NCBI GenBank assembly: GCA_021161185.1
Contig: JAGHBC010000011.1
Coordinates: 1-47,164 of the forward strand
Reading direction: 5' to 3'
DNA length: 47,164 nt
DNA from: Fidelibacterota bacterium
GTDB lineage: Bacteria; Fidelibacterota; UBA2242
Made by a program: the position numbers and the translations under genes. This document shows, piece by piece, positions 2,818-47,164 of this stretch; the stretch's first letter is position 1; every line of letters begins with the position of its first letter. Under the pieces are notes generated by a model. The model was not told the DNA's origin. It searched no databases and saw only the letters and a list, made by a program, of their open reading frames with translations.

Positions 2818-4875
2818 ATGGAAAAGAATATCTTCGGATTTATCGTTTTTTGTGCTTTCCTGTTAATGCAAAATTTACCGATCCTGGCTTTGACAACGAC
2901 TTCATTGGACCTGATGCCCGTTCCACAGGAAATAAAGGTAATAAACAGCGAAGGTTTTCGCCTGGACGCCGGATTCTCTGTTGCTCTCGATGGCTATGCC
3001 GATGCCCGCCTGTATAAAGCCGCCACGCGCATGTTGCGTCGCCTGTCCGGTCGAACCGGTCTTTTCTTTCCTCAGGATTATATCACCGCAAAATCCAATC
3101 CGACGATGCCACAGATGATTATCAAGACTTCACGGATTGGAGATTTAGTAGTCGGCGAAGACGAATCCTATCAGCTGACGATCACAGAAAACCAGGTCAC
3201 TCTTAAAGCCGAGACCGATATCGGCGCTCTGAGAGGACTGGAAACCTTTTTACAGCTGTTGTCTGTCGATGAAAAAGGTTATTATTTCCCGGCAGTTGTC
3301 ATCAATGACGCTCCCCGCTTTCCCTGGCGCGGACTGCTGATCGATGTCAGTCGGCACTTTATGCCGGTTGAGGTAATTAAACGTAATCTTGACGGCATGG
3401 CGGCTGTCAAAATGAACGTTTTTCACTGGCATCTGGCTGACGATCAGGGGTTCCGGGTTGAATGTCAAAGCTGGCCGAAGCTTCACGAACTGGGATCCGA
3501 CGGATTCTATTATACCCGGGCACAAATTAAAGAGATCATCGCTTATGCCGCCAACCGCGGAATTCGGGTTATACCCGAGTTTGATGTGCCGGCGCATGCA
3601 ACCAGCTGGCTGGTGGCTTATCCGGAATTGGGCAGTGCTCCCGGACCATACAGCCTGGAACGGCGCTGGGGCATCAAAGACCCGATCATGGATCCGACAA
3701 AGGAATTCACCTATGAATTTCTGGACAAATTTTTCGCCGAAATGGCAGCCTTATTTCCCGATGAATATTTTCATATCGGCGGCGATGAAAACAACGGCAA
3801 CCACTGGAACACTAACGACCATATTCAGCAGTTTATGAAAGATAATAATATCCCCGACAACCACGCCCTGCAAACCTATTTTAATAAACGCATTTTACAG
3901 ATCTTAACGAAGTACGGCAAAAAAATGATCGGTTGGGACGAAATCTTTCAGCCTACGCTGCCAGCCGATATTATCATTCATTCCTGGCGCGGATCAGAAG
4001 CGCTCGTCAAATCAGCCCAACAGGGCTATATGGGTATTTTGTCGAACGGGTATTATATCGACCTTATACAACCGGCGGAATATCATTACCGAAACGATCC
4101 GATTCCGGAAAACACATCTCTCACCGAGGAGGAGCAAAAAAGAATTCTTGGCGGAGAGGCTACCAGTTGGGGAGAACTGGTTACTTATGAAACTATAGAT
4201 TCGCGCATTTGGCCCCGCACAGCTGCCATTGCCGAAAGACTTTGGTCACCTCAAAGTTGTAATGGTATCGAAGATATGTATCGTCGTCTTGAAGTAGTCA
4301 GTTTTCAACTTGAGGAACTTGGGTTGACTCATATAAAAAATTATGACATGATGCTGCGACGCCTGACGAATAACCATAATATTGCGGCATTAAAAACTTT
4401 TGTCGATGTGGTTGAACCGGTTAAAAGATACGAGCGCCTTTTACAGGAGATTACCTATACCTCCTACTCGCCCTACACTCGCGTTGTTGACGCAGCCCGA
4501 CCGGAATCGATGACCGCCAGACGCTTCAGTCAACTGGTAGATCAATTCATTGAAAATCCTAAAGCCCCAGCCTCACACGAGTTGACTGATCTTCTAAAAA
4601 TCTGGGAAAATAATCACTCCTTTTTAAAGCCCATAATTGCAAAATCGCCTGTTCTGCAAGAAATTGAAACCATGTCTGCTGATTTGCAGGAGCTTGCCGA
4701 AACCGGATTACTGGCGGTGCGCGCTTACCGAAAACATAAAAGACTTTCGAGAAAACAAATCGAATCCGCCAGAGCTGTTCTGGAGAAGGCTAAAAAACCA
4801 CGCGGACAGGTCGAGCTAATGGTTATTGCACCAATTGAAAAATTAGTTCTGGCGGCAATATCAAATCAAAAATAA
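2818..4875 (+). CDS. Beta-N-acetylhexosaminidase, glycoside hydrolase family 20, secreted
   Basis: The GH20 catalytic blocks HWHLADDQGFR and HIGGDE are present, with the LLIDVSRHF strand. The ATG at 2818 follows GAAAGG and gives a hydrophobic signal peptide. The track start at 2803 is a TTG alternative. Confidence 0.85.
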   Translation: MEKNIFGFIVFCAFLLMQNLPILALTTTSLDLMPVPQEIKVINSEGFRLDAGFSVALDGYADARLYKAATRMLRRLSGRTGLFFPQDYITAKSNPTMPQMIIKTSRIGDLVVGEDESYQLTITENQVTLKAETDIGALRGLETFLQLLSVDEKGYYFPAVVINDAPRFPWRGLLIDVSRHFMPVEVIKRNLDGMAAVKMNVFHWHLADDQGFRVECQSWPKLHELGSDGFYYTRAQIKEIIAYAANRGIRVIPEFDVPAHATSWLVAYPELGSAPGPYSLERRWGIKDPIMDPTKEFTYEFLDKFFAEMAALFPDEYFHIGGDENNGNHWNTNDHIQQFMKDNNIPDNHALQTYFNKRILQILTKYGKKMIGWDEIFQPTLPADIIIHSWRGSEALVKSAQQGYMGILSNGYYIDLIQPAEYHYRNDPIPENTSLTEEEQKRILGGEATSWGELVTYETIDSRIWPRTAAIAERLWSPQSCNGIEDMYRRLEVVSFQLEELGLTHIKNYDMMLRRLTNNHNIAALKTFVDVVEPVKRYERLLQEITYTSYSPYTRVVDAARPESMTARRFSQLVDQFIENPKAPASHELTDLLKIWENNHSFLKPIIAKSPVLQEIETMSADLQELAETGLLAVRAYRKHKRLSRKQIESARAVLEKAKKPRGQVELMVIAPIEKLVLAAISNQK

Positions 4876-4898
4876 TAAGGTAGATTAGGAAGGATAAC

Positions 4899-5156
4899 AT
4901 GAAAAACTTTATTATCATCGTCGTCAACAAGCGTAAAAAAGAAGCTGTCACGGTACAGAAAATTCTGACGGAATGGGGCTGTTTGATCAAAACCCGGCTG
5001 GGTTTGCATGAGGGGGTTTTGGATAATTGTTCGGAAATCGGTTCAATTATCTTAGAAGTCGTCGGAGAGCCAAATCAGCATGAAGAGATCGTACGAAAAT
5101 TGAACCTGCTGGCTGGAGTAACTGCCAGGCTGGTTAATGTTCCCATAGAAAAATGA
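4899..5156 (+). CDS. Small ACT/NikR-C-like protein resembling the TM1266 family (putative iron-only hydrogenase system regulator)
   Basis: 85 aa. The pattern IIIVV..(helix)..LIKTRLGLHEG..SIILEVVG..(helix)..LAGVTARLV looks like the beta-alpha-beta-beta-alpha-beta layout I associate with TM1266-type proteins. The assignment rests on resemblance only. Confidence 0.4.
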   Translation: MKNFIIIVVNKRKKEAVTVQKILTEWGCLIKTRLGLHEGVLDNCSEIGSIILEVVGEPNQHEEIVRKLNLLAGVTARLVNVPIEK

Positions 5157-5320
5157 TCTGAAGATTTGGCTAAACTTAAGGAATTGCTTGCCTTAAATTG
5201 CTAACGTGTTGAAAAAATTGTCAATTACTACAGCCACATGCCGGTGATTGTTGGTACCCGGCGGTTGCATTTAAGGGGCCAAAACACTAATTTCGGCAGC
5301 AATTAAAGGAGTCTATCATA

Positions 5321-6304
5321 GTGGATATTTATCGTTACACACCGGATAAACAAGAGCGCTGGGATCGATTTGTCGATCAGTCAAATAACGGTAATCTGTT
5401 TAACTACCGCAAATTTCTTACTTATCACATCGGCAGAACTTTTAACGACCATTCGCTAATGTTTGAAAAAAACAGCCACATTATTGCCCTGTTTCCGGCT
5501 GCGGAAGTGATTCGGGATGGCAAAAAGATCCTGTATTCTCATCCGGGCGCCAGTTTTGGCGGATTTGTTTTTAAAAACCCCTACTATTCGGAAATTGAAG
5601 AGATCATAGATCTTTTCGAAGAGTATTGCATTGATCAGGGCTTCGATGGCACTTTTTTTATTCCGGCGCCCTTTTCCTATTTCGAAAATCCCAATGAGAC
5701 TTTTGAATATGCCTTAATCTGGAGAAAGTACCAGATCGTTGAAAATTATATTTTCAGTATAATAAATCTCAAACCTGATCTGGACAATATTTACCGGGAA
5801 ATTCTGCGTCGCAAAAAACGATCGATGGATTTCTATCGGCGTCTTATCGAAAAAAACAATATTCGTTTTGAATGGAATAAAAAATTTGATGAATATTTTC
5901 CTATTTTAATCGAGAATAAAGCCCGGCACGGGATTAAGCCCACCCACACTTTGGACGAAATCATTAAATTGGACAAACTTTTCCCGGGATATTTCAACCT
6001 GCTGATGATGTATTCCGGCGATGTTCCCATTGGTGGAACTCTGAATTTTACCGCGAATAAACGAGTTGCGATTATATTCTACAATATGATCAACTATGAC
6101 TATGCACATTTACAACCCGCATCGCTTCAGATAATTGAATGCATTCGGTGGGGCAAAGAGATGGGGTTTGATCTCCTCGATTTTGGTGTTTCCCAATTGC
6201 CCCAGGCGCCCGATCCCCTAACGCCAAGCCATTCATTGATTCGTTTTAAAGAACAATTAAACGGGGTAGGAATGATCCGCAAAGTTTTTGCAAAGAATTT
6301 TTAA
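5321..6304 (+). CDS. FemAB-like / Acetyltransf_6 GNAT-fold protein
   Basis: 327 aa with a GTG start 9 nt after AAAGGAG (5305-5311). It has the two-lobed GNAT-like organisation typical of FemAB-family proteins that head exopolysaccharide loci. No sharp motif was seen, so the call is family-level only. Confidence 0.45.
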   Translation: MDIYRYTPDKQERWDRFVDQSNNGNLFNYRKFLTYHIGRTFNDHSLMFEKNSHIIALFPAAEVIRDGKKILYSHPGASFGGFVFKNPYYSEIEEIIDLFEEYCIDQGFDGTFFIPAPFSYFENPNETFEYALIWRKYQIVENYIFSIINLKPDLDNIYREILRRKKRSMDFYRRLIEKNNIRFEWNKKFDEYFPILIENKARHGIKPTHTLDEIIKLDKLFPGYFNLLMMYSGDVPIGGTLNFTANKRVAIIFYNMINYDYAHLQPASLQIIECIRWGKEMGFDLLDFGVSQLPQAPDPLTPSHSLIRFKEQLNGVGMIRKVFAKNF

Positions 6305-6329
6305 TAACCCGGGATAAACAGTCCGATAT

Positions 6330-7778
6330 ATGACAGCAAACATCAAATCCCTGACCAAACAGACTCTGGTTTACGGTGTCGGAACTATTCTGACCCGCCT
6401 TGTTACTTTTCTGCTTCTGCCGGTTTATACAAATGTTCTGTCGCCGGCGGATTATGGTCTGGCAGTGCTGGTGTTTGTTTTCACGGCATTCATGAATCAT
6501 ATCTATAACTATGGTCTCGATTCGGCGCTCATGCGGCATTACGGGGAAGATCCTGCGCCTCAATATACAACAACTGTTCTATCGACGGCGATTTGGTTAG
6601 CCCTGGGCTCTAGTTTTGTTTTTAGCGGCATTATCTATTTGTTAAATAATCCTCTGAGCAAAGCACTTTTGTCGTCAGCTGATTATGCGCAACTGATTAA
6701 ACTTGCCGCTTGCATCCTGTTCTTTGATTGTATCTCACGGGTGCCTTTTGCACTGTTAAGGCTGGAAGAAAAGCCCGGCTTCTTTATGGGTATTCGCCTG
6801 ATAAACGTAGTTATCACTCTGGGCTTGAACATCTATTTTGTCGTTTATCTGAAAACCGGGATTATCGGGATTTTCCAAAGTAATGTAATTGCATCCTGTC
6901 TCACGGCACTTATCCTTTTTACTACTATAATATCGAAAATCAAAATCGTCTTTTCCGGACATATTGCAAAAGATCTGGTGCTTTTCGGGTTACCCTTTGT
7001 CCCAATGGGGCTGGCTACAGCTGCTATGGAAATGTTGAATCGCTATATTGTTGAACATTTCATGGGACTTGAGGCGGTAGGAATTTTCAGCGCCGGTTAT
7101 AAGCTGGGTATTTTTATGCTGTTAATCTCAACGGCATTTTATTATGCCTGGCAGCCGTTTTTCATCAAAGCCGGGAAAAAGGAATCATCACGGGTGCTCT
7201 TTTCAAGAGTATTGACCTATTTTATTCTGGTGGCTTTAAGTTTCTGGGTAGTGCTGACGGTTTTCATGCACGAAATCATAAATTTTCATATTGGCGGAGT
7301 TTATCTCATCGGCGCGAAGTTTCAAGGCTGTGAATCAATGGTGCCCTTTATCCTGCTCGGATATGTTTTCTATGGGATTAACCAGGTTTTTCTGCCGGGC
7401 ATCTATTTTGAAAAGAAGACCCGCTATATGGCATATATTGCTTTTCTGGCAGCCGGGGCTAATGTCCTTTCGAATTTTCTCTTAATCCCACGCATGGGGT
7501 TGATCGGATCGGCGATTTCGTCACTAATCGGGTATATGATATTGGCGGCATTCACATTTCAGGTTTCGCAGCATTTATTTAAAATACCCTATGAATATCG
7601 CCGGATTGTCTTGTTGTTCGTTATAATGTTACCTGTGGGATTTTCCAGTTATATTTTTCATCCGTCGATACCGGTGAAATTTATGGTAATATTGATTATA
7701 CCGCTGTTATTGCGTCTTTTCGGATTCTTTAAAAAAGATGAGATTGCATCCTTGAAGATGCTTCTGCCATTCAGGTAA
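6330..7778 (+). CDS. Oligosaccharide/polysaccharide flippase (Wzx-like, MOP superfamily)
   Basis: 482 aa and polytopic, with about 12-14 hydrophobic segments. The N-terminus LVYGVGTILTRLVTFLLLPVYTNVLSPADYG is typical of the polysaccharide biosynthesis protein family. Confidence 0.8.
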   Translation: MTANIKSLTKQTLVYGVGTILTRLVTFLLLPVYTNVLSPADYGLAVLVFVFTAFMNHIYNYGLDSALMRHYGEDPAPQYTTTVLSTAIWLALGSSFVFSGIIYLLNNPLSKALLSSADYAQLIKLAACILFFDCISRVPFALLRLEEKPGFFMGIRLINVVITLGLNIYFVVYLKTGIIGIFQSNVIASCLTALILFTTIISKIKIVFSGHIAKDLVLFGLPFVPMGLATAAMEMLNRYIVEHFMGLEAVGIFSAGYKLGIFMLLISTAFYYAWQPFFIKAGKKESSRVLFSRVLTYFILVALSFWVVLTVFMHEIINFHIGGVYLIGAKFQGCESMVPFILLGYVFYGINQVFLPGIYFEKKTRYMAYIAFLAAGANVLSNFLLIPRMGLIGSAISSLIGYMILAAFTFQVSQHLFKIPYEYRRIVLLFVIMLPVGFSSYIFHPSIPVKFMVILIIPLLLRLFGFFKKDEIASLKMLLPFR

Positions 7779-7782
7779 AACT

Positions 7783-8913
7783 ATGCATAAACCGGTTCAT
7801 ATCTGTCACGTTACGATCGGACATAATCCGACGGATGACCGTATTTTCTACAAAGAGGTATTGACGCTGTCTGAAAAATATCCGAAGATTTCCGTCATTG
7901 CCCCCAAGCGATGTCAGCCGGAACAGCACCCCGCCGTGCAATTTCACCTGTTTTCTGAAAAAGGGTACTTTCGCAACCTGTTCAGCGCCTTTAAAATTGC
8001 TAAATCTGTTCGGGCCAACCTATATCATGTTCACGATTTTGAATTTCTACCCTTTGCCCTGTTTTTAAAATACAAATACAAACGCAAAGTCGTCTACGAC
8101 GCTCACGAGACAATATTTTATTATTTCACCGAATTCACCCGACGTTCAAAACTAATCACTTTCATCCCTGCAATTATAGCCCAAACTACAGAATGGATCT
8201 GTGCGCATTTCACCGATTATGTCATTACCGTTACGCCCTGGGTGGCAAAAGGGTTCAGACCGTTCCACAAGAAAATAACACTCATCTATAATTATCCAAT
8301 TGTAGATATGTTTGAAATCCCGGCGTTTGAAAATAAGGCTAAAAACCGACCGCTTATTTTATATCATGGGCAATTAGTTCCGGCGCGAAATATCGATATA
8401 ATGGTTGAGTCCATGAAATATGTCCGGGAAAAATTTCCCGACGCCAAATTATTGATTGTCGGCGGGATTCAACAGTGGTATAAAGATCAGCTTGACCTGA
8501 TTGTGCGTGAAAACCGGCTCGAAAAATGGGTTGAGTTTCGCCAACCGGTACCCTTCACAGAAGTACCCCAATTAATCCGGAACGCAACTCTTGGGCTTTC
8601 CTCAATGAGACCCAATGAATCATTCAAACGCTCGATTCAGATCAAGCCTTTTGAATTTATGAGCATGGGTGTGCCCGTTCTCGGATGCCGGGTCCCATCA
8701 ACGGAAATTTATATTGAACAGACGGAATCAGGGATGCTCGTAGATCCACCTACGGCGCAGAATCTGGGCAATATCATTATTCATCTTCTCAGTCATCCGG
8801 AAATCATGAATCGGATGGGGCAAAACGGTTGGCGAGCCGTCCGGGAAAAATATAATTGGGCAATGATGAAAAAACCGTTATACCGCATTTATAATGAAGT
8901 GTTATCATGTTAA
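7783..8913 (+). CDS. Glycosyltransferase, GT-B fold (GT4-like)
   Basis: 376 aa. The C-terminal region KPFEFMSMGVPVLG...GMLV resembles the Ex7E nucleotide-sugar binding block of GT4 enzymes. The gene follows the flippase after a 4-nt gap. Confidence 0.7.
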   Translation: MHKPVHICHVTIGHNPTDDRIFYKEVLTLSEKYPKISVIAPKRCQPEQHPAVQFHLFSEKGYFRNLFSAFKIAKSVRANLYHVHDFEFLPFALFLKYKYKRKVVYDAHETIFYYFTEFTRRSKLITFIPAIIAQTTEWICAHFTDYVITVTPWVAKGFRPFHKKITLIYNYPIVDMFEIPAFENKAKNRPLILYHGQLVPARNIDIMVESMKYVREKFPDAKLLIVGGIQQWYKDQLDLIVRENRLEKWVEFRQPVPFTEVPQLIRNATLGLSSMRPNESFKRSIQIKPFEFMSMGVPVLGCRVPSTEIYIEQTESGMLVDPPTAQNLGNIIIHLLSHPEIMNRMGQNGWRAVREKYNWAMMKKPLYRIYNEVLSC

Positions 8914-9992
8914 AAATCCTCTACATATCACCGGAAAACACTGTCGGGATTCTGTCCTATTGGAAAAAAGCCCATGAGATCAATGGCAATTACTGCCGCT
9001 TTGTGACTTTCTATAAAACCTCGGCGGGTTATGAAAATGATATTTTGCTAAACCTACCCCTCATCGCTTCAAAGTCATGGTATCTCCGTTCCCGAAAAGT
9101 GCTTTCACGGGTGGCTGATGGGCGGGAACTGCACGCCAATCTTTCCGGGTATCCGCCGGTCTGGAATCCGCCGGTCTGGCAGAAAAAAATGATGGAATTC
9201 CGGGAACTGATCTGGCGTCCCAAAATCAACCACGCCATCCGGGAATATAATCTGGAGGATTTCGATGTCTATCATTTCGAATGGGGTCTGGATTTCTTCC
9301 GCAATGCAGCTTTCGCAAAGCGCATGAAAGCCCGGGGTAAGAAAATCGTCTGCCATTATCACGGACAGGATATGCGCAACCGCGGCGTTATCCCGGATAT
9401 GGAAGCAATCAGCGATTTAAACCTGACTAATGAACTTGATCTGCTCTATCGGCATCCAAACCTGAAATATCTCTTTTTACCCTATGATGTCAAAGCCTTT
9501 GAAATAAAGCAGTCCCTCAATCGTCCGCTCACAATCTGCCATGCTACCACTCACCGCATTATAAAGGGCTCCGACCGCATTATCGCTGTCTGTAAAGAGT
9601 TGGAGAAAAGCCACGGTATCCGCTTTATTTTTATTGAAAATCAGCCCCACGCCAAAGTACTGGAACTCAAACGTCAAGCCGATATCTACATCGATCAGAT
9701 TGGTGCACTGACCTGGGGTTACGGAATGAATTCGCTGGAAGCGCTCTCAATTGGTCTGGTTTGTGTCACGTCATTAAACGAAACCTACGAATCCTTCATA
9801 CCAGACCACCCGTTTGTAAACGCCAATGGAGAAAATTTAAAAGAGAAACTGATTGAATTGATTGAACAAAAAGAATTGCTCCGTGAAAAACAAATCGTAA
9901 GCAGGGAATGGGTAGAGAAACATCATGATTATCGGAATGTTGTTAAAGAGTTGTATCAATATTATGAAAAATACTTGGGGGTGGGATCTTGA
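8907..9992 (+). CDS. Putative glycosyltransferase (GT-B-like C-terminal domain)
   Basis: 361 aa, overlapping the upstream gene by 7 nt. The C-terminal half (ICHATTHRIIKGSD...YIDQIG...GYGMNSLEALSIGLVCVT) resembles a GT1/GT4 sugar-donor domain. The N-terminal half is unassigned. Confidence 0.45.
   Translation: MLKILYISPENTVGILSYWKKAHEINGNYCRFVTFYKTSAGYENDILLNLPLIASKSWYLRSRKVLSRVADGRELHANLSGYPPVWNPPVWQKKMMEFRELIWRPKINHAIREYNLEDFDVYHFEWGLDFFRNAAFAKRMKARGKKIVCHYHGQDMRNRGVIPDMEAISDLNLTNELDLLYRHPNLKYLFLPYDVKAFEIKQSLNRPLTICHATTHRIIKGSDRIIAVCKELEKSHGIRFIFIENQPHAKVLELKRQADIYIDQIGALTWGYGMNSLEALSIGLVCVTSLNETYESFIPDHPFVNANGENLKEKLIELIEQKELLREKQIVSREWVEKHHDYRNVVKELYQYYEKYLGVGS
9151..9180 (+). repeat. 15-bp in-frame tandem duplication inside the glycosyltransferase-like gene
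   Basis: ATCCGCCGGTCTGGA (9151-9165) is followed directly by ATCCGCCGGTCTGGC (9166-9180), with 14 of 15 positions identical. It encodes PPVWN-PPVWQ. Confidence 0.9.
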
Positions 9993-10205
9993 AAATATTA
10001 ATATTTAGGAGTATATATTGAAGGAAAATTTGACTAAAAAACCACCCAAATACTTTACAATTGATGTTTCCTCGAAATGCTATCTAAAATATGCTTTTTT
10101 TGCAAGAAAGAAGACACTAAACTCTCAGCCCGATCAAAATATGTCTTTAAAGATTTTATGTTTATTGCTGAGTCTATAGATATTGAACAGAAAGATAAAA
10201 AAATA

Positions 10206-10982
10206 ATGCCGATAATAAAGAGAATATTTCTGTTATTAATATTATTAATTGCTCTTAATAATTGTGACTCTCTATTGAATAATGATATGTTAGAGGCCAA
10301 AGGTGGGGTGTGTTTAACTTTTGATGATGTGTATGTTAATGAATGGTATAAATTGTCTGATTTATTGAGATTAAATGACTTCAAGGCAACATTTTTTATA
10401 TCAAAAATTTATTCTCTTTCATCATCTGAAATTCACAATCTCAGAAAGCTGGGTTCTCTCGGTTTTGAAATCGGTTGTCATGGGTGGAACCATATAGATG
10501 CTGCTGATTATCTCACACATCACTCCTTATCTGAATATTACAACGTTGAAATTTTACCGGCTTTGAACTTTATGAATGAGAATAATCCTTCCCCGACCTC
10601 TTTTGCTTATCCCGGAGGAATGCATAACGATTCATTAGACCAGTATTTACTTCAAAAATTCCAAATTCTTAGATGTGTAACCATGGAACAGGTAAAACCC
10701 CTTACTAAGAATGTAGAAGAGATTAATGAAATTTTTATTAAGAAAAACAAATCACAAATAGTAGCCGGTCTTGGTATTGATAAACAATTTAAAATTAGCG
10801 AAGACATGCTTTATATTGCACTTGAAAGAGCAAGTGAAAATGGTGAAATTATAATTTTATATGCTCATTGTCCCGTTGATTCAAATGCACAACATTATCA
10901 GATAAATAAGTCTTATATAGAAAATTTAATTTTGAAGTGTGAGGAATTAAATTTAAAGTCATATAGGATGTCAGAAATTTAA
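10206..10982 (+). CDS. Polysaccharide deacetylase (NodB-homology, CE4-like), probable lipoprotein
   Basis: NodB-type motifs are present: the aspartate pair in CLTFDDVY and the histidines in GCHGWNH. Starting at the ATG at 10206 gives MPIIKRIFLLLILLIALNNC, a signal peptide with a lipobox-like Cys. The gene is markedly AT-rich relative to its neighbours. Confidence 0.7.
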   Translation: MPIIKRIFLLLILLIALNNCDSLLNNDMLEAKGGVCLTFDDVYVNEWYKLSDLLRLNDFKATFFISKIYSLSSSEIHNLRKLGSLGFEIGCHGWNHIDAADYLTHHSLSEYYNVEILPALNFMNENNPSPTSFAYPGGMHNDSLDQYLLQKFQILRCVTMEQVKPLTKNVEEINEIFIKKNKSQIVAGLGIDKQFKISEDMLYIALERASENGEIIILYAHCPVDSNAQHYQINKSYIENLILKCEELNLKSYRMSEI

Positions 10983-11009
10983 AAAATTTCGACTCAAGAT
11001 TTTATACTT

Positions 11010-40034: not shown

Positions 40035-40289
40035 AAGAGGTAAACATAAATTCGAAAACCTGCCTTTTAGGAAAAGGAAACCGTGAGTCATTATTAATGT
40101 TATTGCTTTTGTTTAATCGTAGAAGAAATAAGGATGGGAAAAATACAATCCCAACAAGTCGAAACAGACATATAACGGAGATTAAACAAAATATTTCTTT
40201 TTTTATTTTGCAGGGATTTTAATCATATATCTAAGGAGAAAATGTTTTAAAATAGAAGCAAACCTTCCAACTTATAAATAGCGGTTAAT

Positions 40290-42962
40290 ATGACTAAAGA
40301 GCAAAAATTTTATAAAGCACTTCAGGATGTTTTTATCGGTGCAAAAATCGAAGGTGAAGGCGGTTTTATCAATTTAATGCGAATAAAATCCGGCTATTAT
40401 TCGCAGATAGAAAAACTGCTCAAAGGCGATACTGAAAAAGCGCTGGAAAAATATCCCAAATTCAGGGAAGAGCTTTTTGACAAGCTGTATTATTTTTTCA
40501 GCCGTTACTTCACTGAAAGCGGATCCATTTATTTTAATTCCACCCCTTTCCATAACAACATTTACGAAAAAGTTTATACGGACGAAAAAGATGTCATTCT
40601 TTTTTGGAAAACGCAGATGCTCTACTATGTCAAAACCGACCGGATTTTTCGCTCCATGCCGGTAGAATTTGATGGTTTTAGGTTTTATTTTGACGCTTCA
40701 AATATTGAAAATAAGAAAGCCAACGAAAAACGCGCGCTTGTTTTTGAATTAAAGCAAGTCAGTGAAGATCCGCCTGCGCCAGGGCTTCGGCGGGCAGACG
40801 GGATAATTGATTTTACTGTGACATATTCTGAAAAAGGGCGCAAGACTAAAACAGACGAGATATTAAAAGCGCTAAAGAAGAACGGCGTCGCAATAAAAGA
40901 AGAAGAACTGGAAAAGGCTTTTCGCGTTTTTGGCAAGCAGTCTGAAGTGGACTTTTTCATAAATAAAAACGCCAAAGCATTTTTACAAGAGCAATTTAAA
41001 CTCTGGAGTTATCAATACTTTTGGGATGGAGCCAAAGAATGGTCTTCCGAAAGAGTGGATCAATTGCAAATTCTCAAAGATATTGCGTTTAAAATAATTG
41101 ATTTCATCTCCCAGTTCGAAGATGAGCTGGTAAAAATCTGGAATAAGCCTAAGTTTGTGAGAAACAGCAATTATGTGATTACGCTGGACAGGATTCTTTC
41201 CGCCTGTCATTCTGAGCGAAGCGAAAAATCTTATAAAGTTATTGAAAAAATACTTAAAGATCGAGGCATAAAAGAGCAGATAAAAGAGTGGCAAGAGCTC
41301 GGAATAGTTGATGACAAATTCAAAGTTGAAGATATTTTTGAAACCGATTTAACGGGAACGCATTTATCTAAAAAGTATGAGCATCTGCCGATTGACACAA
41401 AATATTTTAAGGATTTAGAACTTGAAATATTGGCGTTGTTTGATGATCTGGATAATCAATTGGACGGCTGGCTGATCAAAAGCGAAAATTATCAGGCGTT
41501 AAATACGATTCTGCCGAAGTTTAAAGAACGAATTAAGTGTATTCATATTGATCCACCGTATAACACAGAGACGAGTGGATTTTTGTATGTAAATACATAT
41601 CAGCATTCGAGCTGGCTAACCATGATGGAGAATCGAATACGAATAGGTTTTGAGCTAATATCACGTGACGGATCGTTCTTGTGTCACATTGACGAAAATG
41701 AATATGAACACCTACAACTGCTTTTTGAGCAATTTTCAGTCGCTAATGCCGGGACTGTCGTGTGGGATAAACGAAATCCGATGAATGCAGGCAGGGGTGT
41801 TGCCACACAGCACGAGTATATTATTTGGCGCTCAAGACAAGAAACGCCGATTTACTTACGGAATGATAGTATTCTTTTGATGTTAAAGGCGGCGGAAAAA
41901 ATAGTGCAAAAAAATGGCGGTGTAACAGAAAAAGCACAAAAAGAATATGCAGCATGGGTAAGTAGCAACCCGGAATTGACGGGTGGCGAAAAGGCATATC
42001 GCTTTTTGGATGAACAGGGACGCATTTATCAAAGTGTCAGTTTAAGAGCTCCCGAACCGCGAGTCGATCCAAAGTTTCACAAGCCTCTTATACACCCCGT
42101 TACAGGAAAGCCCTGCCCTGTTCCACCTAACGGCTTTTCACGTACTCCCGAAACACTTCAAAGAATGATGAAAAGAGGCGAGATTATGTTTGGAGAAGAT
42201 GAAACTATCCAACCTCGCCAAAAAGTCCAATTAACCGTGGAAACTAAAAGACAGATCTCTTCTGTAATTCAGGATGCCCGAAAGGGTAAGGCGGATCTTG
42301 ATCCGTTAGGGCTTGATTTTCCTTATTGCCACCCAGTTTCCCTATATGGAAAGCTTATTGGCGCTGCGAGCGCATCAACTGATGATATTGTGCTCGATTT
42401 CTTTGCCGGCAGTGGTACGACTGCACAAGCTGTTATAAATTTAAATCGCAAGGACGGCAAGAAGCGCAAATATATCTTAGTAGAAATGGGAAATTATTTT
42501 AATAACACAATTATACCTCGTGTAAAAAAGGTTGTTTTTAGCGACAATTGGAAAAATGGAAGAGCATACGAAGGAAAAGGTATTGGTCACTTTCTTAAAT
42601 ACTACGAGCTTGAGCAATATGAAGAAGCGCTGGCAAACTGCAAATATAAAGATGGGGATTTGTTTAGTGTTCCGGGAAAATCGCCTTATCAGGAATATGT
42701 CTTTATGAAAGACGAGAAGATGCTAAAGGCATTGGAAATTGATTATGAGAATAATAAAGTGACTGTGGATTTGGCGAAGCTATATCCGAATCTCTCGGCT
42801 CCGCTCGGGACAAGCATCGATATTGCCGAGACTTTGTCAAATCTTAGCGGAAAGTGGATCAAGCGGATTTCAGACTATGAAGTGGAATTTATTGACGGGA
42901 CCAGGATAAACACAAAAGAATTGGATTATAAACTTATTAAGCCGTTAATTTGGTGGGAGTAA
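40290..42962 (+). CDS. DNA methyltransferase, beta-class (N6-adenine/N4-cytosine family, Type III Mod-like) with ~400-aa unassigned N-terminal region
   Basis: The catalytic motif IV IHIDPPYN (DPPY at 41550-41561, aa 421-424) precedes the SAM motif I DFFAGSGTT (about 42399-42419, aa about 704-710). This IV-TRD-I order is that of beta-class and Type III Mod enzymes. I recognise no nuclease motif. Confidence 0.8.
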   Translation: MTKEQKFYKALQDVFIGAKIEGEGGFINLMRIKSGYYSQIEKLLKGDTEKALEKYPKFREELFDKLYYFFSRYFTESGSIYFNSTPFHNNIYEKVYTDEKDVILFWKTQMLYYVKTDRIFRSMPVEFDGFRFYFDASNIENKKANEKRALVFELKQVSEDPPAPGLRRADGIIDFTVTYSEKGRKTKTDEILKALKKNGVAIKEEELEKAFRVFGKQSEVDFFINKNAKAFLQEQFKLWSYQYFWDGAKEWSSERVDQLQILKDIAFKIIDFISQFEDELVKIWNKPKFVRNSNYVITLDRILSACHSERSEKSYKVIEKILKDRGIKEQIKEWQELGIVDDKFKVEDIFETDLTGTHLSKKYEHLPIDTKYFKDLELEILALFDDLDNQLDGWLIKSENYQALNTILPKFKERIKCIHIDPPYNTETSGFLYVNTYQHSSWLTMMENRIRIGFELISRDGSFLCHIDENEYEHLQLLFEQFSVANAGTVVWDKRNPMNAGRGVATQHEYIIWRSRQETPIYLRNDSILLMLKAAEKIVQKNGGVTEKAQKEYAAWVSSNPELTGGEKAYRFLDEQGRIYQSVSLRAPEPRVDPKFHKPLIHPVTGKPCPVPPNGFSRTPETLQRMMKRGEIMFGEDETIQPRQKVQLTVETKRQISSVIQDARKGKADLDPLGLDFPYCHPVSLYGKLIGAASASTDDIVLDFFAGSGTTAQAVINLNRKDGKKRKYILVEMGNYFNNTIIPRVKKVVFSDNWKNGRAYEGKGIGHFLKYYELEQYEEALANCKYKDGDLFSVPGKSPYQEYVFMKDEKMLKALEIDYENNKVTVDLAKLYPNLSAPLGTSIDIAETLSNLSGKWIKRISDYEVEFIDGTRINTKELDYKLIKPLIWWE

Positions 42963-42981
42963 ATTAAAAAGAGGTAGAAAA

Positions 42982-45672
42982 ATGAGCAATAAAAAATTAA
43001 ATAATTTATTCTCTGATGGCGCAAATTGGATAAAAGCAGATTTTCATTTGCACTCACCATTGGTCCATTCATTTACTTTGCCATCAGGGATTAATCTTAC
43101 TTCGCCAGATGCTTTAGAGCAACTTGCAGAAGATTATGTTGCTAAACTGAAAGAAACGCAAATTGAAATAGCGGCAATAACTGACTACCAGCAAATCCGT
43201 AAAGAATGGTTTGAATTGCTTCAAAAGGAAGCAGAAAAAGAAGATATTTTTATATTCCCCGGTATAGAACTTTCAATTAGTTATGGTAAGGGATTGCATA
43301 TACTTCTCATTTTCGATTATTATGAAAATATTGATGGAATAAATGACTACATAAAATCACTTGATAAAGAACCTCACAAATCATTACTAAATGCTGACCG
43401 AAGTCATAGAGATATTACTCTTCAAAAAGATTTGGCTGAAGTATTAAACGACATAAAAAGTACATTTCGGACTTTTATCATTTTTCCACATCCTGAAGAT
43501 AAAAACGGGCTTATTAAAGAATTTCAGCCCAAAGAAGCAGCCCAATTAATTAAACTGGCAGATGCAATAGAATATATAAGCGATGAAAGCAAAAACAAGA
43601 TCAATTCAACTGGAATAATCAATAATTCCTGGTGGGAAAATTTTTCCATCTTAGAAAACAGTGACCCCAAAAGCATTGATGAGATAGGTTGTAAAAAAAG
43701 AGGTGATAAGACAAGATGCACGTTCCTGAAACTAAGCAGCGTTTCTGTAAATGCTTTTAAAATTGCTTTACACGATCCGTCATTGCGGATAAGCATTTAT
43801 ACAAAGCCTGATTTTAAAAAAGATCGCATCGTATCAGTAAAAGTTGAAGGAAATGGATTCCTGAAAGATGTAGATATTAAATTCAACAAGGATTTAAACA
43901 CACTTATTGGCGGAAGAGGAGTTGGGAAATCAGCAATTGTAGAAACCATAAGATATTGTTTAGATCTTCCGGTTTACTCCGAAAAAAGTTTCAGAGAAGA
44001 CTTTGTAAAAAGTGTAGTGGGCAGCGGGGGTAAAATAGAGCTTAGCGTAGAAAGAGTTTTTGGTGACACACAACATTGCTATAAGATTAAAAGAATTATT
44101 GGTCAATTACCTGAAGTAGAGGATAGAGATATTCCACCCTTAGAACTATTCGAGGAAAAAACTCCTTTATTACTTGGGCAAAAAGAATTGTATGCACTGT
44201 CATTAGACGATATGTTTCAGCTTTCATTGATTGATGAATTAATCGGGGATGAAATAAAAAAAGAATCTAATGAATTCAAAAAATTACTTTTAAAATTAGA
44301 AGAAAATGCAACGCACCTTTTACAACTGCAGAGAAAAATAAATCAAAAAGAAGAAATTGAACAAAAGATAAAAACTATCAATGAGCACATCAAAACCTTT
44401 CAGGAACTTGGCGTAGTAGAAAAAATGGCGAAGCACACTGCTTTGATAGAAGACGATAAAAGTATTAATCGTTTTTACAAAGAATTCAAAAAGCAGATCG
44501 AAGAACTAAAAGAAAAATTTGAAGAATCTGTAAGTGTCTTAAAAAGTGAAGTTAATTTACTAAGTAATGGCAAAAGCATTGAAAAAAGTATTCTTGCCGA
44601 AGCTTCATGTTTGTTATCAGAGTTTAATTCTTATCTTGAAAATTTGAAAAATGATTTCACTCAAAAAACAAAAAAATATATAGACGAGTTTAATTTAATA
44701 ATAAACAAATGGCAGGAAAGCAAGAAAACATACGAAACCGAAATTAATGAAATAAAAAAAGAATTATCAGCGAAAGGATTAGCCCCAGATAGATATGAAG
44801 CACTTATCAAAGAGAAAGCTGGGTTAGAACCGTTATTGAAAGAATATGAAAAAATAAATGAACAAATTGAAGATTTACAAAAGGAGCGGGAAAAAATAAA
44901 ATCAGCGATTAAAGAAAAACGGCATCAGTTATTTACCGTAAGAAAAAATAAGATAGAAGAATTAAACAATAAATTAGTTGGCAGAATTCAGATGGAAGTG
45001 CTTTATCTTGCCAACCAAAGCGAATTTAGAGAATCTTTTAAAAATCTATTAAGCGGTTCCGGAGTTTCCAGAGATGCTATAGATAACATCATTGAGGGAG
45101 AAAAAGTCAACATAGATGGAATTGAATTATCCAGAGCAATTGCTGAAGGTATTGAAAAAATAAAGGAATTATTTAGCCTTACTGATGCGATGGCTAGTAG
45201 AACAATAAACTGGTTCAGTGAAAAAGAAAAATTATATGATCTGGAAAGGATTTTTCCAGATGATAAAATTGTAATCAAATTAAAAGTTGGTGATAGTTAT
45301 AGCGAACTATCCAAACTCTCTGTCGGCCAAAAAGCCACTGCTTTATTGATACTTTTATTTGCACAAGATGACCGAATATTGATTATTGATCAGCCGGAAG
45401 AAGATTTAGATAACAGGTTTATATATGAAGATGTTGTGAAAATATTAAGAGAAATTAAAAATAAAAGACAGATAATTTTAGTGACTCATAATGCCAACAT
45501 ACCTGTCTTAGGAGATGCAGATCAGACTATCGTTTTAGATGCATCAAGCGAAACCTGCAGAATAGTTGATTATGGTTCTATTGATAAAAAAATTATTACA
45601 GATAATATTAAATCTATAATGGAAGGTGGCGAAGAAGCCTTCAGTCGTAGAATAGAAAAATATGGAGTATAA
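42982..45672 (+). CDS. PHP-domain phosphoesterase fused to an SMC/Rad50-like ABC ATPase (PplA-like architecture)
   Basis: The N-terminus ADFHLHS (HxH, aa 22-24), AITDYQ, PGIELS and GLHILLIF form a PHP-like motif series. Walker A GGRGVGKS lies at 43909-43932 (aa 310-317). A K/E-rich coiled-coil of about 250-300 aa follows. The ABC signature-like LSVGQK (45316-45333), Walker B ILIIDQPEEDLD and H-loop VTHNANI complete the ATPase head. Confidence 0.75.
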   Translation: MSNKKLNNLFSDGANWIKADFHLHSPLVHSFTLPSGINLTSPDALEQLAEDYVAKLKETQIEIAAITDYQQIRKEWFELLQKEAEKEDIFIFPGIELSISYGKGLHILLIFDYYENIDGINDYIKSLDKEPHKSLLNADRSHRDITLQKDLAEVLNDIKSTFRTFIIFPHPEDKNGLIKEFQPKEAAQLIKLADAIEYISDESKNKINSTGIINNSWWENFSILENSDPKSIDEIGCKKRGDKTRCTFLKLSSVSVNAFKIALHDPSLRISIYTKPDFKKDRIVSVKVEGNGFLKDVDIKFNKDLNTLIGGRGVGKSAIVETIRYCLDLPVYSEKSFREDFVKSVVGSGGKIELSVERVFGDTQHCYKIKRIIGQLPEVEDRDIPPLELFEEKTPLLLGQKELYALSLDDMFQLSLIDELIGDEIKKESNEFKKLLLKLEENATHLLQLQRKINQKEEIEQKIKTINEHIKTFQELGVVEKMAKHTALIEDDKSINRFYKEFKKQIEELKEKFEESVSVLKSEVNLLSNGKSIEKSILAEASCLLSEFNSYLENLKNDFTQKTKKYIDEFNLIINKWQESKKTYETEINEIKKELSAKGLAPDRYEALIKEKAGLEPLLKEYEKINEQIEDLQKEREKIKSAIKEKRHQLFTVRKNKIEELNNKLVGRIQMEVLYLANQSEFRESFKNLLSGSGVSRDAIDNIIEGEKVNIDGIELSRAIAEGIEKIKELFSLTDAMASRTINWFSEKEKLYDLERIFPDDKIVIKLKVGDSYSELSKLSVGQKATALLILLFAQDDRILIIDQPEEDLDNRFIYEDVVKILREIKNKRQIILVTHNANIPVLGDADQTIVLDASSETCRIVDYGSIDKKIITDNIKSIMEGGEEAFSRRIEKYGV

Positions 45673-45674
45673 CT

Positions 45675-46826
45675 ATGAATGAATTGGAAATAAAAGAATT
45701 GATAGCCCGCGGAGAAGGTTATCATTTGAAGTTCAAGGAAGAAAACATATCTAACGAAGATTTAGCAAAAATATTGGTTTGCTTTGCCAATACCGATGGA
45801 GGAAAAATTCTCGTTGGAGTGGATGACAATGGGATTATTAAAGGGATAAGTGAATCTGACAGGATTATGTTAAGAATTGATGATATAGCCATCAATCGCT
45901 GTGAACCGCCTGTTACTATTTTGCAGGAGACAGCACTTGTGGATGATAAGACCATTCTCATTGTAAATGTGCCCAAGGGTAGTCAGCGTCCGTACAGAAC
46001 AAAAAGAGGTAATTATTATGTAAGATCATCCAATCGGTGTCGCCAGGCTTCCAGAGAAGAGTTGCTAAGAATATTTCAAGCATCAGAAAGTCTTTATTAT
46101 GATGAATTACCTGTTAGGCGTTCTGGTATGTCTGATTTGGACATTAACCGATTTAAAATTTTCTTAAAGGATTCACTTAACGTTAGTGTTAATAATAATG
46201 AAATTAAGAATTATCTTATAAATTTTCATTTGACAGCAATTGATAACACTCCTACCGTTACAGGGATTTTATTTTTTGGTGAAGCACCTCAGAAATTTTT
46301 GCCCGAGGCAAGGATTATATGCGCTTTTATCAATGGCAATGACTTATCCATACCTCCCGATGATAAAAAAGAAATTTCTGGCACTATACCCCAAATGGTA
46401 GATGACACAGAAAGATTTTTAAAAATCTACCTGAAAGAAAAGCACGAGATAAAGACTTTTGAGCCTGAAATAAAATTTGAAATTCCCCTTGAATCTCTGA
46501 GAGAAGCTGTATTTAATGCCATAGCACACAGAGATTATACAATTAACGCACCGATTAGAATTATAATTTTTTCGGATAGAATAGAAGTCCATAGTCCGGG
46601 CAAACTTCCTAATACAGTTACAATAGACAGTATTAAAATAGGAGGTTCTCATGTTCTTAGAAATCCAAGCATATATAATATCTTGGTTAAAATGGGCAAA
46701 GTAACCGATTTAGGAAGTGGAGTTAGAAGAATTATTAGATTGATACAGGAACACATTAAAAAAGAGGTTGACTTCAAAGAAACCGACAGTGAGTTTATTT
46801 TGATAATACCAAGAAAAAATAATTAG
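45675..46826 (+). CDS. AlbA_2 (Schlafen-type divergent AAA) domain protein with C-terminal HATPase_c_4-like domain
   Basis: The N-terminus ELIARGEGYHLKFKEE...LAKILVCFANTDGGKILVGVDDNGIIKGI is the classic AlbA_2 pattern. The C-terminus REAVFNAIAHRDY...IRIIIFSDRIEVHSPGKLP matches the HATPase_c_4 pattern. It starts 2 nt after the upstream stop. Confidence 0.75.
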   Translation: MNELEIKELIARGEGYHLKFKEENISNEDLAKILVCFANTDGGKILVGVDDNGIIKGISESDRIMLRIDDIAINRCEPPVTILQETALVDDKTILIVNVPKGSQRPYRTKRGNYYVRSSNRCRQASREELLRIFQASESLYYDELPVRRSGMSDLDINRFKIFLKDSLNVSVNNNEIKNYLINFHLTAIDNTPTVTGILFFGEAPQKFLPEARIICAFINGNDLSIPPDDKKEISGTIPQMVDDTERFLKIYLKEKHEIKTFEPEIKFEIPLESLREAVFNAIAHRDYTINAPIRIIIFSDRIEVHSPGKLPNTVTIDSIKIGGSHVLRNPSIYNILVKMGKVTDLGSGVRRIIRLIQEHIKKEVDFKETDSEFILIIPRKNN

Positions 46827-46864
46827 TAAATAAAATGTAATGAAATCTTCAATTTAGTAGTAAT

Positions 46865-47164
46865 ATGCGACTTTACTTACAAAACATCGTAGGCGATATT
46901 TCTTTCGATAGCCTACCTCCCAAATGGCAGAGTTTTGATCTGGCAAAATTTTCTCAAGACAAGATACTTTTTGATTTTCTAAAACAGGGGCTGCAAAATG
47001 CGTTAAAAGGGCTTTGGTTTTATTACATAGAGAAAAAAGGCCAAAAAGAATCTCTTTTTGAGCATTATCGGGCAAACGGGTATGCAGAAGATTTTGACTA
47101 TGATCTGGAAAAGAAAAAAGACGGTAAAACAATAAAATATATTTTAGAATACGATCAGGATTAT
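46865..47164 (+). CDS. Hypothetical protein, 5' partial (runs off the window); possible helicase/restriction partner of the cassette
   Basis: Exactly 100 stop-free codons run from the ATG at 46865 to the window end in an AT-rich stretch (MRLYLQNIVGDISFDSLPPKWQSF...FDFLKQGLQNALKGLWFYY...). The ORF is absent from the supplied track, presumably because it has no stop. No clear SD was seen, and the functional guess is weak. Confidence 0.5.
   Translation, partial: MRLYLQNIVGDISFDSLPPKWQSFDLAKFSQDKILFDFLKQGLQNALKGLWFYYIEKKGQKESLFEHYRANGYAEDFDYDLEKKKDGKTIKYILEYDQDY

Follow-up and report, generated by a model that had tools for sequence, protein, structure and literature searches.

The 47,164-nucleotide stretch of DNA analysed here, contig JAGHBC010000011.1 of a Fidelibacterota bacterium (assembly GCA_021161185.1; hereafter the window), ends in an AT-rich block of four genes, mod, trlF, trlG and the 5' part of res, which is likely to be a horizontally acquired, layered defence operon composed of two separable units: a Type III-like restriction-modification (R-M) pair and an embedded trlF-trlG pair. 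All four proteins belong to known families, and the cassette is not a new four-part system. An earlier note on this DNA, made from its letters alone, had proposed a single four-part system in which the PHP-ATPase (here TrlF) acts as the DNA-clamping nuclease effector. Neither proposal is supported, the first because Mod-Res and TrlFG each occur without the other and the second because relatives of the Res subunit carry a PD-(D/E)xK domain of their own. What appeared to be a four-gene 'system' lacking a nuclease can now be read as an R-M operon with a nested second layer. The features of the block are as follows.

valS, stop codon at 40034: directly upstream of the AT-rich block
40035..40289: AT-rich leader, the spacer between valS and mod, 255 nt, 29% G+C; left edge of the putatively acquired block
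40290..42962, + strand: mod (gene 1), 890 aa; predicted Type III beta-class N6/N4 DNA methyltransferase with an N-terminal extension of ~400 aa
41528..42590, + strand: central part of mod, the putative target-recognition region, replaced relative to the closest relative, locus L001
42982..45672, + strand: trlF (gene 2), 896 aa; predicted PHP phosphoesterase joined to an SMC/Rad50-like ABC ATPase
45675..46826, + strand: trlG (gene 3), 383 aa; predicted prokaryotic Schlafen (AlbA_2) joined to a GHKL/histidine-kinase-like ATPase (HATPase_c_4)
46865..47164, + strand: 5' part of res (gene 4), 300 nt or 100 codons, open at the window end; predicted N-terminus of a Type III-like restriction subunit

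Two separable units in one cassette

The window was compared with two collections of loci, one anchored on the methyltransferase and one on TrlF. Among the 80 metagenome loci of the first, 32 have a Res of the same family downstream, and TrlF is found in none of these 32: mod abuts res in 18 of them, and in the other 14 an insert of 0.6-2.9 kb with other genes lies between the two. The second collection consists of 80 loci from species-representative genomes, whose open reading frames (ORFs) were searched with iterated profiles, and there TrlFG is mostly found without a Mod-Res pair of the gene 1/gene 4 family. Since Mod-Res occurs mostly without TrlFG, and TrlFG also occurs without Mod-Res, the two pairs are separable units. 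In the window, mod and res keep the same strand and order but are not adjacent, 3.9 kb of trlF and trlG lying between them.

In this Type III-like family, the junction of mod and res serves as a cargo slot in which many different accessory modules of defence or toxin type are found. The inserts seen there (L085, L087, L089, L095, L098, L102, L105, L114 and L123) include SMODS with Cap15 (a minimal CBASS), RhuM-Fic, Bro-N, IrrE/M78 with DUF4411, a proteasome-like protein, Fic and unannotated ORFs, and in L123 a MNT and HEPN-like pair recognised by inspection only. In one further locus, L088 (9965-17796), TrlF is missing and Mod is accompanied by a TrlG-like gene, RhuM/Fic and Res, an arrangement which implies that the Schlafen partner can persist in the slot without TrlF.

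TrlF and TrlG themselves usually occur as a pair. Of the 74 species loci with enough sequence to judge, 57 have TrlG immediately after TrlF, and the distance matrices of the two proteins are correlated (Mantel r 0.90, 0 of 999 permutations). The TrlF relatives that lack TrlG have unrelated genes downstream, and that these solo proteins represent another family was rejected, as all of them pass the TrlF family cut-off.

The immediate neighbours of TrlF loci are enriched for R-M parts. Upstream, in 71 loci, they include N6_N4_Mtase (14), Methylase_S (4), Eco57I (2) and PglZ (2); downstream, in 67 loci of the TrlF-anchored set, ResIII occurs 17 times, among them five cases with HSDR_N. The four loci with Methylase_S upstream and the five with HSDR_N downstream probably place TrlFG within Type I operons, judging from the domain matches. 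Other nested arrangements are PglZ - TrlF - TrlG - OLD ATPase - UvrD - DUF1156/N6_N4 methylase; SNF2/NOV_C helicase - TrlF - TrlG - DUF1156 protein; and Eco57I-type methylase - TrlF - TrlG - MNT/HEPN - SNF2 helicase. Outside such operons, a TrlFG pair flanked by insertion sequences is found on a Pseudomonas syringae plasmid, solo TrlF occurs on Listeria and Citrobacter plasmids, and in Photorhabdus TrlFG adjoins trlR. Two neighbourhoods hold additional modules. In L165 (3695-16685), TrlFG and a Gabija-like pair (an OLD-family ATPase and a UvrD helicase) lie together between PglZ and a DUF1156/N6_N4 methyltransferase, so that one BREX-related locus houses two nested accessory modules. In L002, HsdM is directly followed by a longer AlbA_2 and HATPase_c_4 protein of 432 aa (3638-6501), some 1 kb ahead of the nested cassette; this is a second Schlafen-type gene on a different methylase in the same neighbourhood.

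Within the clade of TrlF proteins nearest to that of the window, the order Mod-TrlF-TrlG-Res is conserved across several phyla, and it is confined to that clade. It is found in 11 loci, of which L001-L004 are metagenomic and L005, L006, L009, L011, L012, L015 and L016 come from species-representative genomes (the mod side of L015 is cut off); the titled records among them are from Ignavibacteria, Nitrospirae, Kryptonium, Atribacteria, a Eubacteriales metagenome-assembled genome (MAG) and an unclassified MAG. Co-occurrence of the four genes, which the earlier note made a test of its hypothesis, is thus seen in these near-clade loci; elsewhere the pairs separate. The nested cassette travels as a unit in the near clade. 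A segment of 4.6 kb (42591-47163), which begins in the 3' end of mod, spans trlF and trlG and reaches into res, is 89% identical to L001 at the nucleotide level, with protein identities of 90% for TrlF and 91% for TrlG, and the gene junctions in relatives include start/stop overlaps.

Such conservation could mean that TrlF and TrlG are obligate partners of Mod and Res in an integrated four-component system, in which restriction needs all four genes, TrlF either processes the DNA ends made by Res or is itself the main nuclease, and TrlG is a sensor or regulator. The retention of the gene order at TrlF identities from 90% down to 48% in several phyla, the tight or overlapping junctions and the 89% nucleotide identity with L001 from the mod 3' end into res all fit this arrangement, and so does the reported activity of Ppl, a relative of TrlF, on 3'-OH ends, since cleavage by a restriction enzyme could provide such ends. 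We nevertheless regard it as unlikely. None of the 32 same-family Mod-Res pairs has TrlF, TrlFG mostly lacks Mod-Res of this family, and the Res relatives have their own PD-(D/E)xK domain. Moreover, trlG and res are separated by additional, unrelated cargo in L002-L004 and L006, and L012 and L016 pair similar TrlFG proteins (48-54% identical to those of the window) with a much more distant Mod (25-27%).

At the other extreme, the adjacency could be fortuitous, with unrelated defence genes lying side by side in an island without any operon logic. Defence genes do cluster generally, and the G+C content of mod (0.394) differs from that of trlF (0.318) and trlG (0.345). This explanation is very improbable given that order and strand are the same in 11 loci of different phyla, that the insertion is always between modification and restriction genes, including those of Type I systems (HsdS upstream, HsdR downstream), that no terminator lies between the genes, and that the upstream flank is housekeeping rather than island.

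The Mod and Res subunits

Gene 1 is assigned by its sequence to the Type III Mod methyltransferases. Residues 415-737 match Pfam N6_N4_Mtase (3.9e-31), in keeping with the earlier description of an extended methyltransferase of that family, and the match to the PADLOC model MTase_III PDLC03638 (1.9e-218) includes the N-terminal extension. A profile of the Mod family built from ten relatives matches solved Type III Mod structures (6k0w, 6.5e-105; EcoP15I Mod 4zcf, 2.1e-79). The invariant columns are D421/P422/P423, D703, F705, G707, S708, T710 and T711, and in the sequence IDPPYN precedes DFFAGSGTT, which places motif IV before motif I, the order expected of a beta-class enzyme.

Recognition-region swapping is typical of Type III mod genes, and the comparison with L001 suggests a case of it. 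By blastn, 41528-42590 has no nucleotide similarity to L001, while the flanks are 73% (40239-41527) and 89% (42591-47163) identical. At the protein level, residues 421-720 are only 15-29% identical. Before them identity is mostly 74-97%, with a dip to 64% at residues 301-360, and after a stretch of 49% at residues 721-780 it reaches 73-88% towards the C-terminus. We read this central collapse of identity as the replacement of the target-recognition region, which implies an altered methylation specificity: 41528-42590 looks like a swapped recognition region that would give the window Mod a specificity different from that of L001.

Only the first 100 aa of gene 4 lie in the window, and over this length it shares 69% identity with the start of a 762-aa protein of L001 (6733-9021). 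Its relatives match Pfam ResIII, SWI2_SNF2 and DEAD and, partially, the PADLOC model REase_III PDLC03654 (~1e-24 to 1e-26). We therefore identify gene 4 by homology as the N-terminus of a Res-type superfamily 2 (SF2) helicase subunit of a Type III-like system. A Res gene downstream was the outcome that the earlier note had named as undermining its hypothesis, and that is what these relatives (ResIII/SWI2_SNF2 proteins) indicate. In the C-terminal ~200 aa of the aligned full-length relatives, the sequence ESE...KPDFIFW...F(I/V)DPKG is found, and the E...PDFIFW...(I/V)DPKG common to all of them appears to be a PD-(D/E)xK nuclease motif. The earlier statement that no gene contains a restriction nuclease motif is thus correct for the window and does not extend to the complete gene, as the relatives of the truncated gene 4 end in PD-(D/E)xK; no nuclease is recognisable among the cassette genes because the window stops before the nuclease part of Res. 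Because of this domain, we rejected the idea that a missing restriction nuclease is replaced by the PHP-ATPase.

The Res family profile, searched against the Protein Data Bank (PDB), gave no sequence match to any solved Type III Res, and since the REase_III match is also partial, 'Type III-like' is a safer name than 'Type III'. The helicase and nuclease parts of Res are fused in L002, L005, L009 and L011; in L001 the 762-aa helicase ORF (6733-9021) is followed by a separate ORF of 208 aa (9061-9687) with the PD-(D/E)xK motif.

The TrlF and TrlG proteins

Gene 2 is placed in the TrlF family by its match to the NCBIfam model NF045780, 'TrlF family AAA-like ATPase' (489.6 bits against a cut-off of 350, residues 13-895). 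It also resembles Ppl, matching NCBIfam NF042955 at 222 bits (1.1e-65), below the cut-off of 1000 required at the equivalog level, and the PADLOC Ppl model at 2.9e-48; these scores suggest a relative, or sister, of Ppl rather than a Ppl member. The family is large, with 1330 clusters at 50% identity (E <= 1e-30), and is represented by at least 592 matches in species-representative genomes, 394 plasmid records and 7 phage records. In the scan of species-representative genomes, no relative was more than 57% identical to the TrlF of the window, and an exact-match look-up with its TrlG returned nothing.

The earlier note had called gene 2 a PHP phosphoesterase fused to a coiled-coil ABC ATPase, and both halves of that call hold. 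The ATPase is evident from matches to Pfam AAA_21, SMC_N and AAA_23. The PHP domain gave no direct match to Pfam PHP, and its profile retrieved nothing meaningful from the PDB sequences; a structure model was needed to recognise its fold. An AlphaFold2 model of full-length TrlF (pLDDT 87) matches the heads of SMC, MukB, JetC, Rad50 and RecN, with their coiled coil. The SMC heads dominated that fold search, which was uninformative on the N-terminal domain, and residues 1-280 were accordingly modelled alone (pLDDT 91.8). The top Foldseek match of this model is the PHP domain of RNase AM (7ug9, E 6e-7), followed by the PHP domains of PolC and Pol III alpha. The resulting layout is a PHP domain at about 13-280 and an ABC ATPase head split by a coiled coil of ~250 aa at about 410-665. 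Across 45 homologues, the invariant residues of the N-terminal part are D20/H22/H24, E96, H106, H170 and D228, and those of the ATPase are G310-S317 (GGRGVGKS), S780/G782-K784, D803/Q804/E806 and T835-N837. Their positions correspond to a predicted PHP metal site and to the predicted Walker A, signature, Walker B and H-loop motifs.

Gene 3 is predicted to be TrlG, a bacterial Schlafen fused to a GHKL-like ATPase. Pfam SLFN_AlbA_2 (PF04326) matches residues 14-125 (1.3e-24) and HATPase_c_4 matches residues 292-377 (2.3e-19), the two domains that the earlier reading had also assigned to it. The conserved residues E277, N281, A282, H285, R286 and G347/G349 are present. The TrlG of the window departs from the canonical Schlafen motif E-x4-(E/D)-x-K, reading E14-GYHL-K19-F-K21. 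Codon 19 (45729-45731) is AAG, Lys, in the context GEGYHLKFK; the closest relatives have E there, and GAG is one base away. Among 62 TrlG homologues, this second acidic position is Q in 30, E in 29, D in 3 and K in none, and the columns of E14 and K21 hardly vary, each being conserved in 61 of the 62. With Q at the motif position, half of the TrlG family may lack canonical Schlafen catalysis.

The TrlG architecture is a familiar one, fusion to a histidine kinase being the commonest arrangement among prokaryotic Schlafens (34%, with a further 19% that add a helix-turn-helix (HTH) domain), and prokaryotic Schlafens are described as tRNase defence effectors (bioRxiv 10.1101/2025.07.24.666596). 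More than half of the defence-associated ones are linked to R-M and other nucleases, for example type I CRISPR (PMC13462974), and Schlafen proteins with a histidine kinase and winged HTH (Schlafen-HK-wHTH) embedded in BREX loci have been proposed to be backup effectors (PMC12839542).

Relation to known systems

The R-M unit resembles the Type III system EcoP15I (Mod/Res) in several respects. The Mod of the window is a predicted beta-class homologue of EcoP15I Mod (4zcf, 2.1e-79), mod lies upstream of res on one strand, and the Res relatives of gene 4 begin with an SF2 helicase and end in a PD-(D/E)xK domain. It differs in the N-terminal extension of ~400 aa on Mod, in the 3.9 kb (two genes) between mod and res, and in a Res family too divergent to match solved structures.

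TrlF is comparable to Ppl, a single-gene anti-phage system (Gao et al. 2020), in that an N-terminal PHP domain precedes an ABC/SMC-like ATPase and its coiled coil, residues 13-681 giving the match. Ppl has been described as a 3'-5' exonuclease on single-stranded DNA that is inhibited by nucleoside triphosphates and activated by 3'-OH ends (review PMC12904381). In contrast to Ppl, which works alone, TrlF is usually followed by TrlG (57/74 loci). The remaining PADLOC matches of TrlF are partial and at the level of the ATPase: mad3 (1e-19, residues 602-857), LmuB (7e-12), AriA (3.7e-8), GajA and PtuA. Membership in BREX, MADS, Lamassu, PARIS, Gabija or Septu was rejected, these matches being only weak and partial; none of the partner genes AriB, LmuA, GajB, PtuB, other Mad proteins or PglZ/BrxC was found by PADLOC in the cassette. 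The possibility raised earlier that the two middle genes are already catalogued single-gene systems is not borne out either, as PADLOC v2 holds only Ppl and no model for TrlG, and TrlF receives from it only weak partial PDC candidate matches besides its relative Ppl.

The namesake of the pair is the temperature restriction locus (TRL) of Photorhabdus laumondii, trlR-trlF-trlG (Hapeshi et al. 2020, PMC7554251), whose trlF name the NCBIfam family bears as well. There, growth at 36 C becomes possible when trlG has a point or stop mutation or when the operon is deleted (PMC7554251). In that locus too a 'histidinol phosphatase'/ATPase, TrlF, is followed by an AlbA_2 and HATPase_c_4 protein, TrlG (the gap in the window is 2 nt). 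Unlike Photorhabdus, the window lacks the small HTH regulator trlR and has an 890-aa methyltransferase upstream and a Res helicase downstream, and its TrlF is only ~27-30% identical to the proteobacterial members. An HTH_3 gene is the upstream neighbour of TrlF in no more than 4 of the 71 other loci.

That defence genes can be embedded in R-M, BREX and Hma loci is well established (bioRxiv 10.1101/2024.01.29.577857; TgvAB, PMC11411939), and pairs of an ABC ATPase with an effector are the commonest embedded type in published surveys. The cases compared here were PrrC in EcoprrI, the Campylobacter Rlo genes, TgvAB, BrxU, HEC-01 to HEC-09 and Schlafen-HK-wHTH in BREX, in which, as with TrlFG, an accessory module lies between modification and restriction genes. 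Those surveys, in contrast to the present comparison, covered Hma, BREX, DISARM and Type I R-M and not Type III, and the main text of Payne et al. contains no PHP or Schlafen terms. The cargo slot of the Type III-like mod-res junction therefore extends 'guilt by embedding' beyond the four kinds of locus for which it is so far documented. PARIS, a pair of the ABC ATPase AriA and the nuclease AriB, is a more distant parallel: the C-terminal ATPase half of TrlF weakly matches AriA (8v46, 2.3e-5), but there is no TOPRIM AriB, the partner TrlG is of the Schlafen/GHKL type, and TrlF brings a PHP domain of its own along with a long coiled coil.

Proposed function of the cassette

The comparisons above show what the genes are, their folds and motifs, that the two units are separable and that the nesting recurs; the biochemical activities that we infer for these proteins in the source organism are as follows. 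Mod would methylate the host copies of a short target set by its central recognition region, and Res, as an SF2 helicase/translocase, would cut unmethylated incoming DNA by means of the PD-(D/E)xK domain known from its full-length relatives. TrlFG, inserted at the mod-res junction, would be co-transcribed with the R-M genes. By analogy with Ppl, the most likely role of TrlF is to clamp, sense or process aberrant DNA, free ends for instance. TrlG is most likely a growth-arresting effector directed at RNA or tRNA, or a regulator of one, a role suggested because of the Photorhabdus genetics and the Schlafen tRNase precedents. TrlFG may then provide a second line of defence once restriction fails or is inhibited. 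Cross-talk of this kind between TrlFG and Mod/Res, in which TrlFG guards restriction in the manner of PARIS or PrrC, is plausible by analogy, and it is attractive because of the embedding and the logic of an ABC ATPase with an effector.

Several points weigh against this reading of the cassette as a layered defence operon. The only phenotype published for TrlFG is temperature restriction, and no suppressor mutation was recovered in trlF (PMC7554251); a limited search of the literature found no experiment showing protection from phage by TrlFG. The Lys at position 19 and the Q in half of the family leave the RNase activity of TrlG, or its canonical Schlafen catalysis, uncertain. On the side of restriction, the helicase and nuclease domains of gene 4 are predicted from relatives, 100 aa lying within the window, no solved Type III Res is matched by the Res profile, the PADLOC REase_III match is partial, and the closest relative, L001, has its Res split into ORFs of 762 and 208 aa. 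Finally, the conserved nesting and short gaps are equally compatible with a functional coupling of TrlFG and Mod/Res.

A wider proposal, which we put forward tentatively and hold to be somewhat less probable than its contrary, is that TrlF-TrlG is a widespread and uncatalogued two-gene abortive-infection system that guards modification and restriction systems as PrrC and PARIS do. TrlF would sense aberrant DNA ends or anti-restriction mimics of DNA and control a Schlafen-GHKL effector that cleaves RNA or tRNA, the pair would sit preferentially between the modification and restriction genes of Type I, III, IIG and BREX-like systems, and its misfiring at high temperature would explain the 'temperature restriction' phenotype of Photorhabdus.

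The same phenotype could instead indicate a toxin-like, stress-response or addiction cassette that hitch-hikes in R-M operons, stabilising them or itself, with growth arrest as its sole activity. The only phenotype published is indeed an arrest of growth at elevated temperature that trlG mutations or operon deletion relieve; the cargo of the same slot includes pairs resembling toxin-antitoxin modules (IrrE/DUF4411, Fic and, by inspection, MNT/HEPN), and one TrlFG pair is flanked by insertion sequences on a plasmid. We think it improbable that this is the whole explanation, as Ppl, the sister of TrlF, is an anti-phage nuclease with experimental support, Schlafens of related architecture defend against phage, and the neighbours of TrlFG are strongly biased to R-M and BREX components; roles in addiction and in abortive infection are, moreover, not mutually exclusive.

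A limited search of the literature found no description of TrlF-TrlG as an immune module, of its recurrent nesting between modification and restriction genes or of the Type III-like mod-res cargo slot. No assigned immune function for TrlFG was found in that search, and PADLOC v2 has no matching model. As a large family with a named NCBIfam model and a published growth-arrest phenotype, TrlFG is a good experimental target. If it is defensive, it would link a DNA-end nuclease/ATPase of the Ppl type to a Schlafen effector, from a family shared with human antiviral immunity.

Composition, transcription and surroundings of the block

The foreign and operon-like character of the block and its defence context, suspected in the earlier note, are supported by composition, gene spacing and protein families. 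A drop in G+C after valS, noticed there by eye, is confirmed by calculation: 0.350 for 40035-47164 as compared with 0.436 for 1-40034, the lowest upstream window of 7.13 kb having 0.406. The most extreme gene is trlF, with a G+C of 0.318 (0.247 at third codon positions), below the minimum of every upstream window of 2.7 kb (0.381). The four genes are all on the + strand with intergenic gaps of 19, 2 and 38 nt, exactly as described before from the ORF coordinates. The start given earlier for the cassette, 40035, holds for the block, whereas its coding part begins only at 40290. Part of the leader (40049-40133) shares 76% identity with L001 111-192, a segment upstream of the homologous mod of L001, so that the leader travels with the cassette.

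A promoter/terminator scan found no terminator-like site on the + strand inside the cassette; this is only weakly consistent with a single transcription unit, because the scan counts are at or below shuffle expectation. In the leader (40035..40289), the + strand yielded no convincing sigma-70 promoter.

The genes upstream of the block are housekeeping in nature (a glycan cluster, SecDF, PriA, a K+ channel and valS), which indicates that the block is an isolated insertion with no larger island on that side. A second patch of low G+C in the window (0.299 for 10001-11000) coincides with a polysaccharide deacetylase gene (10077-10982) within a glycosyltransferase/flippase cluster, probably a separately acquired glycan gene.

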